Below, one piece after another: positions 17,413 through 29,951 of a stretch of 64,000 nt of DNA (position 1 is its first letter; each line of letters begins with the position of its first letter). The stretch spans positions 32,001-96,000 of the forward strand of contig CAVRJG010000003.1 of NCBI GenBank assembly GCA_963721455.1. Reading direction: 5' to 3'. The position numbers and the translations under genes are program-made. The DNA is from an uncultured Methanosarcinaceae archaeon (lineage in GTDB: Archaea; Halobacteriota; Methanosarcinia; Methanosarcinales; Methanosarcinaceae). Under the pieces are notes generated by a model, which worked only from the letters and a program-made list of their open reading frames with translations, searched no databases and was not told the origin of the DNA.

Positions 17413-17611
17413 TTTTCCCCCATACAATATAAGTTGCATTATAATTAATATTTTAAATTATATTTAAATTCCTACTAGCTACTGAACATAGTTCTTCTTA
17501 TGATCTGTCGTTTTCCCCCCATAAAATATAAGTTGCATTATAATTAATATTTTAAATTATATTTAAATTCCTACTAGCTACTGAACATAGTTCTTCTTAT
17601 GATCTGTCGTA
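17413..17611. repeat. Tandem ~99-bp duplication of the lipoprotein upstream region
   Basis: ttcccccata.aatataagttgcattataatt...tgatctgtcgt occurs twice back to back. Confidence 0.9.
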
Positions 17612-18126
17612 TGGTACCATAATTTCTCTGAAAATAGAGATATTCAGTTAACTCAATGCACTTCTTTATCTTCAGTTTTCATATTCTTCTAAATTACGAA
17701 AAAAGAGTTTCTAAAAGAGAGGCGGCAGAAAATCATATTCAACCTTGATGATCAATTAGAATATCAATTTCACCTCATTTATAAGGAAATGGGGCGTAAA
17801 ATGATCTTAAAAAGTGAGGTCGTTTTTAAAGGCTTTTCGTTAAAGTGAGATTTTTCGACAATTCCGGTATTTCAAGCATCTAAATATCATTTGCCTTTGT
17901 ATCGATCTTACTTCTTCACTGTTATATTCCTATTACTGTATCGCGTGAATCGAATACTCGTAGAAGTGCCTTTTCGGTAAACACGAACTTATTTGTTTCT
18001 TATTCCGGTTGCCAAACGAAAATTCACCTCTGCCTTTTATGCATTTAAGAATTCTCATATAATAAGCGAATTGCGCTATAAAGCGTCCGGGCTAGAGGCA
18101 AAGCCCTGAGTCACCACTTAAACGAT

Positions 18127-18431
18127 TTAGTAACCTTTTCTAGGAGTTACTTTGATTACTCCGGTTCCGCTTGTATTATTTCCAGCTTGAGTCGGCTGTA
18201 TGAGTGCCTTTTTTCTTTGAGTACTACCTAAAATCTTAGTTACATTACCAGTTGCGCTTTGGTTAGTAGTGGTATAGTTTTCAGTATAATTTTCAGCCGG
18301 AGTTACTTCTGTCAACCGGAGTTACTGTCTCATTTGGAGCTTCACCTTTCTGACCAGCGCATCCTATTGCAAGGAATATACACTGAACAATACTAACAGA
18401 ATAACCAGTTCTTAACCAGTTCTTTTCTCAT
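18127..18431 (-). pseudogene. Frameshifted paralogous lipoprotein
   Basis: MRKE start and FLAIGCAGQKGEAPNET match 17105..17410; an 11-bp duplication (aagaactggtt) breaks the frame. Confidence 0.7.
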
Positions 18432-26438: not shown

Positions 26439-26792
26439 TTAATTAAGGTACCCTTTTCTTTCAAGCCATTCAATCTGGGGCCTTGTGTATTTCCAGGTAA
26501 CGTCGGCTTTTGAATTCTGAACTTCCCACGGATTGGCTATGACAACATCGCCTTCGCGGATCCACATTCTTTTTTTCTTGGAACCGGGAATCCTGCCCAT
26601 TCGGACTACTCCGTCCATGCACTGCAGTGTAACTCTTTTTGAGCCAAGTAAACTTGCTACTGTTGCCAGGACTTCGTTTCTGTCTTTACGGGGAGTTCGT
26701 ACCCTTGTTATTTCCTGGGGGCCGTCTCCTGAGCCTGTCGAACTGGTAGATCCTAATTTTCTTTTCCTAATAGTGCTTCTGTAATTAGCCAG
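26439..26792 (-). CDS. eif1a: Archaeal translation initiation factor aIF1A, copy 1 (missing from ORF track; CTG start)
   Basis: (M)[10 protein letters not shown]...RVRTP...[33 protein letters not shown]...[16 protein letters not shown]; GGAGG RBS 7 nt before CTG. Confidence 0.95.
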
Positions 26793-27063
26793 ATTAATTC
26801 CTCCGATGCTGATTTTTTTAGCTTAATAATTTCGGTAATAAATCCTTTTTGCTAGTTTCGATTCTTAATTCCGGTTGTTTTTCCTTTTTTCGCGAGTGGT
26901 ATCAAATATCTGCTATTTCCGAATAGATGTAATTAATTTATCATGAATTCGGTTCCAGGACGCATCCGCAGAAATAGAAGGCGAAAAACAGAAAGATTAA
27001 AACCATTAGTGAAAAATGAATTGAGTGTTAATCCAAAAAATTAACACTCAATACAGATTATCT

Positions 27064-27270
27064 TTAAAACTTCCTGTGGTTAGGAAGACATTCTCTGCAG
27101 TAAACCGGCCGTCCTTCAGTTGGCTTGAACGGAACTTCAGTCTCAACACCGCAGTCAGAACAGGTAACTTTGGTCATTTCCCTGGGGCCGCTGTTGCCGC
27201 CTCTGAAACCTCCACGGTTGCTGTCTCTGTTGCCGCCGCGGAAAGAATTTCCTCTGTCATTAAAACCCAT
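27064..27270 (-). CDS. CxxC-x17-CxxC zinc-finger protein with RGG-rich N-terminus, copy 1
   Basis: CSDCG..VPFKPTEGRPVYCRECL; GGAGGTG RBS. Confidence 0.9.
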   Translation of the reverse strand: MGFNDRGNSFRGGNRDSNRGGFRGGNSGPREMTKVTCSDCGVETEVPFKPTEGRPVYCRECLPNHRKF

Positions 27271-27422
27271 ATTTGTTTCACCTCCGCTTATAGCGGGTAA
27301 TTATAGAGTAAAAACAAGATTGTATAAAATTTATTGATTAAAAACAAAAATGGAGTTTTTAATAACAGATTATACGTCTCTTTATTTTCAACTATATCTA
27401 CACAGTCATTTAAATATATAAA
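27271..27422 (-). promoter_or_regulatory. TATA box plus conserved structured 5' leader (also at 27992-28140 and 29475-29626)
   Basis: Nested inverted repeats with compensatory changes across three copies; CCGCT-nnn-AGCGG hairpin overlapping the RBS; TATA at a constant offset. Confidence 0.75.
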
Positions 27423-27783
27423 TCTTCCTATGAAAACACAGAGTAATGGTGGTAAAATCCTCTCAAGCGGACGTCTATCAAGCGAATATCTATAATCTGC
27501 ACTTCGAATTTAAGTATATAAACTTGAGATAATTATTATCAGTCCACGGACTGCAGGAAATACCAATCTGCTGGAAAATCAGATAACTTTGCTGATTTAA
27601 AATCTTTGCTGATTTAAATGATTCTAAGGAAAGTTCAAACTCATTATTCTATGAAATATATAACAGTACACTTGTTCAATAAAAGCATAATATAAAAGAA
27701 GCCGTCCGTTTGGCCTGCCCAAGCTAAGCGAAACGGACATAATTGTCAAGTGAAATTTTCCGAATGAACTGGTATTAGCAATA

Positions 27784-27991
27784 TTAATACCTGTTTTCTC
27801 TGGGTTTTCTGTGGTTAGGAAGGCACTCTCTGCAGTAGACTGGTCTGTCGGGGTCAGGTTTGAAAGGTACCTGAGTTTCAGCACCGCAGTCAGAACAGGT
27901 TGCGTTGTGCATTTCCTTCGGGGCTCCGAAACCTCCACGGTTGCTGTCTCTTGCCGCCGCGGAAAGAATTTCCTCTGTCATTAAAAGCCAT
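27784..27991 (-). pseudogene. CxxC-x17-CxxC protein copy 2 with a 2-bp deletion near the N-terminus
   Basis: ggcaagagac versus ggcaacagagac in paralogs; ATG 27991 is out of frame with the zinc finger. Confidence 0.75.
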
Positions 27992-28466
27992 TTTATTTTC
28001 ACCTCCGCTTACAGCGGATAGTCAATAGTTTAAAAATAAGACTGATATAACTCTTTGATTAAAAACAGAAGGTAGTTTTTAATAACAGATTATATATCTC
28101 TTTATTTTTAATGTTCTTAGTATACAATCAAATTATATAAGTTTTACTCCTAAAAATCAGGAACGCGCAAAAAATGCTTTCTACTTTAAGAGTTACCCTT
28201 GTTAAAGCCAATCTTTCAGATTCTTTTCTGACAGATGTGGTAATTGCCAGTTAAACTCCACGAGGAAGGCAAGGATAAGTTGAAAAGGTTAGAGGTAAGC
28301 GCTTGAAGGAAGGAACACGGAAAAGGTTAAAGGTAAGCGAAGGTAAGCGCTTGAAGGAAGGAACATGGAAAAGATGAATAGGGGTTTAACCTAAAACTGG
28401 TTAAAACCGGATTATTGTCAGGACAATATAATTTTTATTTAAACTTTACTGTGATATTTCAGGAAT

Positions 28467-28811
28467 TTACTTCAGGTAACCTTTTCTTTCAAGCCATTCG
28501 ACCTGAGGCCTTGTGTACTTCCAGATTACATCGGCTTTGGAATCCTGAATCTCCCAGGGAGCGACGATTACTACATCTCCCTCGTGGATCCACATTTTCT
28601 TATTCTTGGACCCCGGAATTCTACCCATTCGGACTATACCGTCCATACACTGCAGTGTGACTCTTTTTGAGCCTAAGAGGGTTCCTACGGTTGCCAGGAC
28701 TTCATGATTCTCCTTACGTGGAGTACGCACCCTTGTTACTTCCTGAGTAGCCGGTGCGGCGCTTCCAGTTCCTGCTTTTCTCTTCCTGATATTGCTTCTA
28801 TAGTTTGCCAG
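28467..28811 (-). CDS. eif1a: Archaeal translation initiation factor aIF1A, copy 2 (CTG start)
   Basis: In-frame extension (M)[10 protein letters not shown] to CTG 28811 after GAGG; same OB-fold motifs as copy 1. Confidence 0.95.
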
Positions 28812-29267
28812 GTTAATTCCTCGTAGTTTTATCAGTTTAAATTATTTTGTCACGATTTGCTTATGTTTTATCATATTTTTCGGATTTACTATGTTCACCA
28901 ATTCTTTAGGTACTTTGATGTGAAGGTTCATAAATGGATAAGAATTAAAAAACCTCTAAAAAATATGAACTCTCTGAAAAATCCAAAATCTCAGGAAACC
29001 TTTAGATTTTAAAGATCCTTCAGTTACTCCATAACCCCTGGACTGAGAGTTTGCTTCAAAATCCTTCAGAGTAATTCTATATTCTATGATAAATTTTAAC
29101 TATGTATAATGGATATCTATGTCCCCACTCTATAACTAAATTAATAACTATTTAAGAGTTCCTATGTCCTTTACCTTCACTTAAGGTAAAAAACACAGAA
29201 TAAAAGGTGGAGTAAGTGTTGATATAATTAATTTGTAAATCAACACCTTCCATTGAGAAATTTGAAC

Positions 29268-29474
29268 TTAGAACTTCCTGTGGTTAGGCAGGCAGTCTCT
29301 GCAGTAAACCGGCCTTCCTTCTGTCGGCTTGAATGGAACTTCAGTCTCAACACCGCAGTCAGAACAGGTAACTTTGTGCATTTCCCTGGGGCCGCTGTTG
29401 CCGCCTCTGAAACCTCCACGGTTGCTGTCTCGGTTGCCGCCGCGGAAAGAATTTCCTCTGTCATTAAAACCCAT
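29268..29474 (-). CDS. CxxC-x17-CxxC zinc-finger protein, copy 3
   Basis: 66/68 aa identical to copy 1. Confidence 0.9.
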   Translation of the reverse strand: MGFNDRGNSFRGGNRDSNRGGFRGGNSGPREMHKVTCSDCGVETEVPFKPTEGRPVYCRDCLPNHRKF

Positions 29475-29817
29475 TTTGTTTCACCTCCGCTTATAGCGGA
29501 TACATGTATTCAATAAAAACATGATCGGATATAACTTATTATTTAAAAACAAAAATGGAGTTTTTAATAACAGATTATATGTCTCATTATTTTTACTAAT
29601 GATAAAACCATTTTTATGCTATATAAGATTAATCCATAAGAACCGGAAGAAATAGAAGCATATTCCTCAAAGAGAAAAGGGCATGGGGTGACATATCAAA
29701 CATACTAATAATACTAATAATTATAATAATAATAATAATAAATTGAGAGGGGAAACACTGTTACAAGAAGGTTTCCATTGATAATGATTAAAATCAAACG
29801 TTTCAGAATTTTTGGAA

Positions 29818-29912
29818 TTAGAACTTCCTGTGGTTAGGAAGACATTCTCTGCAGTAAACCGGCCTTCTTTCAGTTGGCTTGAATGGAACCTGCGTTTCAA
29901 CACCACAATCAG
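29818..29912 (-). pseudogene. 3' remnant of a fourth CxxC-x17-CxxC gene
   Basis: SDCGVETQVPFKPTERRPVYCRECLPNHRKF*; 5' part and leader missing. Confidence 0.8.
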
Positions 29913-29951
29913 AAAGAAGATAAAAATAAAGAGACGATAAATAATAGATTG

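Follow-up and report, generated by a model that had tools for sequence, protein, structure and literature searches.

The window analysed here is a stretch of 64,000 nucleotides (nt) from an uncultured Methanosarcinaceae archaeon (contig CAVRJG010000003.1, positions 32,001 to 96,000). It contains three repeats which are 5' leaders of about 120 nt, with the RNA on the minus strand, situated upstream of paralogous genes whose products combine an Arg-Gly-Gly (RGG) tract with a CxxC-x17-CxxC zinc ribbon. The same order of elements was found in all three full units: a TATA box, about 23 nt, an AU-rich hairpin of 85 nt, a linker, the Shine-Dalgarno sequence GGAGGUG, a spacer and the AUG (Table 1). 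The linker between the end of the hairpin and the Shine-Dalgarno sequence measured 17-20 nt and held a small CCGCU-NUA-AGCGG hairpin, and the spacer between GGAGGUG and AUG measured 7-8 nt. Compared with dinucleotide shuffles, the folds of the three single copies had z-scores of -2.6, -4.1 and -3.1.

The stems listed in the original prediction for these leaders, as well as its two compensatory differences, were all found in the three copies. The outer stem required some correction: on the minus-strand RNA it comprised 11 base pairs (bp), with a 1-nt bulge and two G.U pairs, and the plus-strand 10-mers first given for it contain two mismatches. The swap reported in this stem for copy 3 is real (AAGA/UCUU to AUGA/UCAU; pair 17:86, AU to UA). 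Likewise, the middle stem read GUAUAA/UUAUAC in copy 1 versus AUAUAA/UUAUAU in copies 2 and 3; the model-based alignment misregisters this stem and the compensatory change was judged by eye. The inner stem, UUAAAAAC/GUUUUUAA, was unchanged across the three copies. Coverage of the ribosome-binding site by structure, also proposed at the outset, did not hold for the large hairpin, which stays clear of this site and ends 17-20 nt ahead of the Shine-Dalgarno sequence.

Distribution of the leader was analysed with a covariance model built from the hairpin alone and searched, under strict filters, in 151 Methanosarcinaceae genomes. The model matched 42 of them, counting the window's own; the hits comprised 41 of the 42 genomes of three genera (33/34, 2/2 and 6/6 genomes per genus), and none of the 108 genomes from 13 other genera of the family. 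Positive genomes carried 2-12 copies, more than 250 altogether, with seven in the genome of the window. An intact family open reading frame (ORF) began 25-34 nt after the leader in 63 of the 76 matches at fetched loci. The remaining 13 consisted of two reverse-strand echoes, four matches cut by the end of a locus or contig, two frameshifted genes, one decayed gene, three leader-only remnants with the coding sequence (CDS) deleted and one weak match without a gene. Per-genome tallies of leaders and of genes of family PF23477, to which the zinc ribbon belongs, were almost equal; the exception in the window's genome was a gene whose N-terminus reads MERKGF, which represents a second subfamily and has a different leader.

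Conservation was evaluated as mean pairwise identity over 61 distinct intact units. It reached 82.6% in the hairpin region, compared with 72.3% in the linker, 70.6% in the CDS, 56.5% at third codon positions, 62.8% in the TATA region and 31-47% in the other flanks. These units were collected via the leader, a source of ascertainment bias that is small because nearly every family gene in the three genera has one. In the stems of the hairpin, hereafter helix A, 96.7% of the cells were standard pairs among 59 distinct sequences, as opposed to 40-53% when the partners were slid by 1-3 columns. Two-sided changes were restricted to 4 of the 29 pairs, since the sequence hardly varies. On the sense strand, G.U cells outnumbered A.C cells (88 versus 26), and this excess fits RNA pairing on that strand rather than a DNA palindrome.

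The near-constant offset of the TATA box was confirmed on the larger sample: in almost every one of the 76 copies inspected, the box lay 21-27 nt ahead of the position where the model begins. This spacing places the start of copy 1 at G 27392, so that the hairpin starts no later than the third base of the mRNA. The supplements of PMC11456600 list two RNA features of Methanosarcina mazei Gö1 that belong to the same gene family, MM_3372 (17483-17795) and MM_3373 (18204-18410). Their first bases, GUUGAUAAAUAAAGAG and GUUGAAAAUAAAGAG respectively (both starting GUUGA(A/U)AAAUAAAGAG), are homologous to the predicted start of the window leaders and lie 123 and 134 nt upstream of the AUG. Metatranscriptome contigs from two studies covered leader 1 and ended at 27384 and 27389, a weak hint on the position of the 5' end, and a metatranscriptome contig of a relative extends beyond the TATA box of copy 2. 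Because the TATA offset is constant and the annotated M. mazei 5' ends agree with it, the RNA start can be placed at the base of the hairpin, upstream of the stems rather than downstream of them. A search of the whole window against Rfam 15 gave no match at the gathering score, and at E <=10 over positions 27000-29700 only two chance-level matches were obtained, both elsewhere than in the leader. The leader is a transcribed, selectively maintained RNA without an Rfam entry and, as originally proposed, acts in cis.

The 5' arm of the hairpin has a second potential partner in the gene itself. In copy 1, a segment running from the core of this arm through the apical loop into the beginning of the 3' arm (the anti-start segment in Table 1) is antisense to the spacer, the AUG and codons 2-6. 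The contiguous core of this second helix, hereafter helix B, spans 13 bp (-13.8 kcal/mol), and the whole duplex amounts to -16.1 kcal/mol, an energy equalled by dinucleotide shuffles in 6 of 3000 cases when the CDS was shuffled and in 1 of 3000 when the leader was. Contiguous helices of at least 13 bp between upstream and start regions were found for 4 of the 687 other Shine-Dalgarno-preceded ORFs of the window's genome; the longest ones in the family members measured 13, 13, 13, 13, 12 and 13 bp. Among the 59 distinct sequences, 93.4-94.9% of the helix B cells were paired, compared with 46-64% in slid controls. Helices A and B are mutually exclusive, both making use of the same 5' arm, and both are conserved across homologs. 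In family genes of sister genera, complementarity between leader and start region was significant in only one case out of six.

Several observations suggested that the leader and the start region vary together. The covarying pairs of helix B were 38:153 (AU 40, GU 16, GC 3) and 56:138 (UA 26, CG 13, UG 12). Loops with UUUC co-occurred with AGAAAAUG spacers (16 units with both, 0 and 1 with either alone, 44 with neither), and loops with an extra C co-occurred with AUGGG (7 with both, 0 and 4 with either alone, 50 with neither). More generally, the apical loop tracked codon 2 (GCU, GGU or AGC/AGU), and two Ser-codon variants had a matching U. Over 50 distinct combinations of leader and start region, cognate duplexes averaged -20.51 kcal/mol versus -19.37 kcal/mol for non-cognate ones, a value that none of 20,000 permutations attained. 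The covariation tests on both helices and the test of cognate fit take no account of phylogeny. Codon usage was also constrained at the start of these genes: codon 3 was TTT in 61/61 units, compared with 174 TTC for 11 TTT in the rest of the same genes, codon 4 was AAT in 58/61 (108:186 elsewhere) and codon 6 was AGA in 59/59 (53% elsewhere). A double pairing constraint accounts for a leader more conserved than its gene, for the invariant N-terminus (M-A/G-F-N-D-R) and for the frozen codons 2-6.

The fold state of each of the 61 units was predicted from the equilibrium ensemble with 60 nt of CDS, and the series simulating a growing transcript was likewise computed at equilibrium. At 37 °C, helix B dominated in 40 units and helix A in 17; the energy model places the two folds near each other, with a mean difference of about 3 kcal/mol. 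The outcome depended on the length of the transcript: helix A dominated in 61/61 units before any CDS was present and in 52/61 with 15 nt of it, whereas helix B dominated in 42/61 at 21 nt and in 39/61 for the full mRNA. It also depended on temperature, as helix A dominated in 39, 25, 17 and 5 units at 5, 25, 37 and 55 °C, respectively, with a shift in predicted AUG accessibility of only 0.42 to 0.32.

Taken with these folding models, the sequence data lead us to consider, with a confidence slightly better than even, that the repeats are cis-acting two-state 5' leaders controlling translation initiation of a multi-copy zinc-ribbon/RGG family. In state A, the first 85 nt would fold from the 5' end of the RNA into the AU-rich hairpin, leaving the ribosome-binding site and the start codon free. 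In state B, a helix of 21-25 bp would instead join the 5' arm and the apical loop to the start region of that mRNA, from the spacer over the AUG to codons 2-6, and the start would be masked. The hairpin would be favoured in the growing transcript until some 15-21 nt of CDS exist, and the masking helix afterwards. State A would then represent the ON form and state B the OFF form, and conversion from A to B, probably nucleated by the apical loop, which is single-stranded in A and complementary to the AUG region, would set the output of all paralogs jointly.

Expression data from M. mazei bear on this model. For six family genes, PMC11456600 gives translation efficiencies, at 37 °C and under nitrogen sufficiency, of 20.6, 17.9, 11.2, 7.6, 3.3 and 3.3 (mean of all CDSs 4.49), and ribosome profiling (Ribo-seq) values for MM_RS12120 of 38,000-117,000 RPKM; all six genes are marked there as lower under nitrogen limitation. 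According to PMC12704099, family proteins bind zinc and are easily detected; A00184 has 1769 peptide-spectrum matches. Given the high translation efficiencies, it is the open form that would predominate in M. mazei cells growing at 37 °C. When the member types of M. mazei were compared, no consistent relation was found between predicted fold state and measured translation efficiency, the best-translated type being predicted as B-dominant.

A series of points weigh against the two-state model. Helix B was predicted at 0.77 for the copy at locus L039, which encodes a protein identical to the best-translated M. mazei member; high efficiency at 37 °C together with such a prediction makes it doubtful that the leader is a simple switch at equilibrium, turned off at this temperature, and helix B either forms little in vivo at 37 °C or represses weakly. 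The measured efficiencies fit kinetic control, in which the hairpin forms first and ribosomes load at once, or an in vivo helix B weaker than predicted. Between 17 and 20 of the 61 units were predicted to be A-dominant, and nearest-neighbour predictions are uncertain for AU-rich long-range helices. The raw duplex energy is in itself unexceptional, as 32-170 of the 687 control genes of the genome had equally low values; it stands out only against AT-rich upstream regions, against the shuffles and by the length of the contiguous helix. Sequence variation is low, with about 3-5 compensatory events per helix, clustered in paralog groups. Finally, the likeness between the 3' arm and the start region could stem from an origin of the hairpin as an inverted copy of the start region.

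Such an origin is part of one alternative, in which the 5'-terminal hairpin would merely stabilise the mRNA against 5' decay and keep an unstructured ribosome-binding site insulated, with its complementarity to the start as a relic. The position of the hairpin at the first bases of the RNA and the very high mRNA levels and ribosome occupancy in M. mazei agree with it, as does the statement in PMC5378194, after Cao et al. 2014, that long 5' untranslated regions (UTRs) stabilise mRNAs of Methanosarcina. However, a stabiliser needs a stem and not a fixed sequence, and the co-variation of loop and codon 2, the better fit of cognate pairs and the frozen codons 2-6 (including GAC and AGA) would be left unexplained, which makes this alternative improbable. 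Another alternative is an autogenous operator, by analogy with ribosomal proteins and CspA: the RGG/zinc-ribbon proteins would bind the leader, at the hairpin, the loop or the 3' arm, and repress all paralogs, the RNA switch being the means of repression or dispensable. Conservation is as strong in the unpaired parts of the hairpin as in its stems, the same leader has been retained on 2-12 paralogs with diverged proteins, and a role of these proteins in RNA binding is likely, given their RGG tract and the domain fusions described below. Double pairing by helices A and B already explains much of this conservation, however, and PMC12704099 suggests that the proteins have a role in transcription. 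We regard an operator of this kind as a possible explanation, although the less probable one when set against the two-state leader.

A thermosensor favoured by cold, in which low temperature would favour or trap the open hairpin and warmth would refold the RNA into the masked form as in Escherichia coli cspA, was put forward in the original prediction and appears doubtful from these models. The part that stood is the in silico effect of cold on the open form, with helix A dominance falling from 39/61 units at 5 °C to 5/61 at 55 °C in the energy model; early formation of the hairpin during RNA synthesis and the fusion of the domain to PF01938 and helicase domains point in the same direction. 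A sensor that is off at 37 °C was not supported, as the genes are among the best translated in M. mazei at that temperature. With temperature, predicted AUG accessibility shifted only modestly and accessibility of the Shine-Dalgarno sequence was nearly constant. Moreover, literature searches yielded no data on cold induction, and the word 'cold' is absent from the accessible text of PMC12704099. Action in trans is quite improbable. In that case leaders or leader-only loci would be released as small RNAs (sRNAs) pairing with the start regions of paralogs, which the anti-start segment indeed matches throughout (the non-cognate mean given above); three loci keep the promoter and leader with the CDS almost wholly deleted, and M. 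mazei lists two transcripts of the family as sRNA features. But the three remnants look like one inherited deletion, and the M. mazei 'sRNA' features extend into the CDS and are translated. Least probable is a palindrome acting at the DNA level, as a transcription-factor site or a cruciform: the inverted repeat does lie just downstream of the promoter, but the strand bias of G.U over A.C, the bulge and asymmetric internal loops of the stems and the second partner of the 5' arm some 90 nt away in the CDS are at odds with it.

Under the two-state reading, the trigger of the conversion may be sought in several directions. Feedback by the encoded, probably RNA-binding, proteins was tentatively ranked first; temperature, with cold favouring or trapping state A, is a possible trigger and came second; and a passive timer set by the rate of ribosome loading, ranked third, seems unlikely. 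It is also conceivable, though we hold it to be rather unlikely, that the leader is a self-timing switch, through which a regulon of abundant RNA-binding mini-proteins would respond to the conditions of RNA folding. The mRNA would start open and then close on its own start codon, faster or slower depending on temperature and on how far the encoded proteins act as annealers or chaperones, leader-only loci being recruited in some genomes as trans antisense copies. If true, this would represent an archaeal counterpart of cspA built from unrelated parts and, judging by the literature searches, no mRNA switch of a methanogen that responds to cold or to chaperones would have been described before it.

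Table 1. Features of the three leader-bearing units and of related genes in the window (positions are those of the window).
Feature	Position	Strand	Remarks
TATA box, copy 1 (TTTATATA)	27415..27422	-	read from sequence
Predicted transcription start, copy 1 (G)	27392	-	23 nt past TATA; homologous to first base of MM_3372/MM_3373
Leader hairpin A, copy 1 (outer, middle, lower and apical stems; consensus 29 bp)	27309..27390	-	
Anti-start segment, copy 1 (5' arm core, apical loop, first 3'-arm bases)	27342..27369	-	complementary to 27253-27278
Small GC hairpin CCGCU-AUA-AGCGG, copy 1	27284..27296	-	overlaps first two G of Shine-Dalgarno
Shine-Dalgarno GGAGGUG, copy 1	27279..27285	-	
Start region, copy 1 (spacer, AUG, codons 2-6)	27253..27278	-	predicted helix B partner of anti-start segment
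Gene copy 1, 68-aa RGG and CxxC-x17-CxxC zinc-ribbon protein	27064..27270	-	PF23477 E 4e-19; TIGR04272 E 1.6e-20
Leader hairpin, copy 2	28022..28116	-	covariance-model match 89.3 bits
Gene copy 2, frameshifted	27784..27991	-	4-nt insertion (CGGC) relative to orthologs
Leader hairpin, copy 3	29505..29601	-	covariance-model match 75.4 bits; compensatory outer-stem and middle-stem changes
Gene copy 3, 68-aa RGG and CxxC-x17-CxxC protein	29268..29474	-	PF23477 E 6.1e-20
Fourth family gene, C-terminal zinc-ribbon stump without leader	29818..29913	-	PF23477 positions 9-37, 53.9 bits

The proteins encoded by copies 1 and 3 carry the RGG-rich tract at the N-terminus and the zinc ribbon at the C-terminus. 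Both belong to the CxxC-x17-CxxC / zf_Tbcl_2 family, with scores above the curated cut-offs (68.5 and 71.1 bits for PF23477, cut-off 27; 72.6 and 74.9 bits for TIGR04272, cut-off 36). A search of PDB sequences with the protein gave nothing significant, the best match (E 0.062) falling on the RGG tract. Among 56 longer relatives, one combined PF00270, PF00271 and PF23477 (P0043) and another one PF23477 and PF01938 (P0046); we take PF00270/PF00271 to be a DEAD-box helicase and PF01938 to be TRAM. PF01938 and helicase domains are linked to archaeal cold response. The encoded proteins are likely to bind RNA, because of their RGG tract and of these fusions to helicase and PF01938 domains.

The 5' part of copy 2 is similar to copies 1 and 3, which looks as though its frame had been broken by a conversion tract. 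The frameshift could also be an assembly error. In M. mazei, no family member is translated more strongly than the ortholog type of copy 2. A second leader-bearing gene of the same genome (L007:1300-1598, minus strand, contig C53) is frameshifted as well, with its zinc ribbon in another frame. The stump of the fourth gene overlaps the start of a small multidrug-resistance gene (PF00893; 29883-30278, plus strand). Two paralogs of the translation initiation factor aIF1A (PF01176), at 26439-26784 and 28467-28730 on the minus strand (NF003085, 157 bits, for the latter), are each located just downstream of a zinc-finger gene, and a metatranscriptome contig (26301-27384) extends from leader 1 over gene copy 1 and across the first aIF1A gene; a single transcript is not thereby proven. 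Strong hairpins followed by U runs, similar to terminators, occur directly past the stop codons of copies 1 and 3 (27020-27054 and about 29215-29250), and the former had a chance-level Rfam match to a microRNA family. A short tandem repeat with units like AAGGTAAGCGCTTGAAGGAAGGAACA occupies about 28255-28365, between the promoter of copy 2 and the second aIF1A gene.

The small GC hairpin of the linker, CCGCU-(A/G)UA-AGCGG, was present where the original prediction had placed it in the three copies (27284-27296, 28005-28017 and 29487-29499), over the first two G of GGAGGUG. It proved less general than the large hairpin: it was confined to the class of leaders with a full GGAGGUG, about 38 of the 61 units, the other class having an A-rich linker and AAGGUG. 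Compensatory variants of it exist (CCGUU/AACGG at L047:2189-2354 and CCACU/AGUGG in MM_3373 of M. mazei). A function as a mask or thermometer of the Shine-Dalgarno sequence was rejected, as accessibility was flat between 10 and 55 °C, and units having this hairpin resembled those lacking it. Comparison by eye of the internal loop of the large hairpin with a K-turn gave no match. A conserved upstream ORF in the 5' arm was also rejected: the frame is mostly open, but its first codon is UUA, which is no start, in about 24 of 57 matched units. A 12-codon ORF (sORF_018) on the 5' arm of the MM_3373 leader is listed in the supplement of PMC11456600 as a DeepRibo call kept after manual curation; its signal may reflect a nuclease-resistant structure.

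Some leaders outside the window deserve separate mention. In the three leader-only loci (L035:899-994, L037:2174-2269 and L045:2057-2152), the promoter, the hairpin (80-86 bits) and the GC hairpin have been kept and the CDS has been deleted down to its last codons. All three have CUGCUAUU in place of CUGUUAUU in the 5' arm, a change that would strengthen pairing to the start regions of paralogs. The second subfamily (MERKGF/MENRGF), found at L091 (G000 C51:79000-80000), L087 and L088, has a long leader of its own with blocks shared across three genera, including a CCUCCC stretch able to pair with the Shine-Dalgarno sequence in two of them.

Full-text literature searches on the domain name, on Methanosarcina topics and on locus tags, with bioRxiv supplements and subscription papers outside their scope, returned no description of the leader or of its fold. 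As far as their accessible parts go, PMC11456600 and PMC12704099 list the genes and two RNAs without discussing leader structure, and the main text of the latter nowhere uses the word 'UTR'; the family genes are not mentioned in the bioRxiv spRNA preprint. The leader has the same sequence, by eye, as those of MM_3372 and MM_3373 of M. mazei, which belong to the same gene family. In this species, few small proteins are translated as strongly as the CxxC-x17-CxxC proteins, which have no known function. A two-fold leader shared by 2-12 paralogs may offer a testable handle on their gene control and, indirectly, on the role of the proteins, all the more so as M. mazei is amenable to genetics and purification of two family proteins has already been achieved.

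Comparison with characterised leaders showed partial likeness to several of them. ROSE and FourU thermometers mask the Shine-Dalgarno sequence directly and open with heat. They share with the window leader AU-rich or weak pairing near the start and a temperature-dependent equilibrium; however, its Shine-Dalgarno sequence lies outside both big helices, the only hairpin that reaches it, the GC hairpin, covers two bases and is missing in about 23 of the 61 units, and the predicted shift is opposite in direction. The 5' UTR of E. coli cspA, cited as a cold-shock thermosensor in PMC5378194, is closer in design. It also is a long leader on a gene for a small, abundant, multi-paralog nucleic-acid-binding protein, in which the start is exposed in one fold and masked in another, the fold formed early during transcription is open and cold favours the open form, as is predicted here in silico. 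Unlike cspA, the archaeal leader follows an archaeal promoter, has its hairpin at the extreme 5' end, precedes a zinc-ribbon gene (PF23477/TIGR04272) instead of a cold-shock domain gene, is efficiently translated at 37 °C and shows no match to it in sequence or structure. Another relevant case is the L20 operator of rpmI-rplT, an autoregulated ribosomal-protein leader with long-range pairing to the start region. In leaders of this type, as is predicted for ours, the start pairs with a segment located far upstream. Conservation likewise extends to both sequence and structure, and the genes follow growth rate, the six M. mazei members being down under nitrogen limitation. They differ in that here one leader is common to 2-12 paralogs and the competing local hairpin would act as a built-in anti-repressor. 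To our knowledge, very few cis-acting mRNA control elements have been described in archaea; the leader would be a new example of the well-known alternative-pairing leaders, in a domain of life where few have been described.

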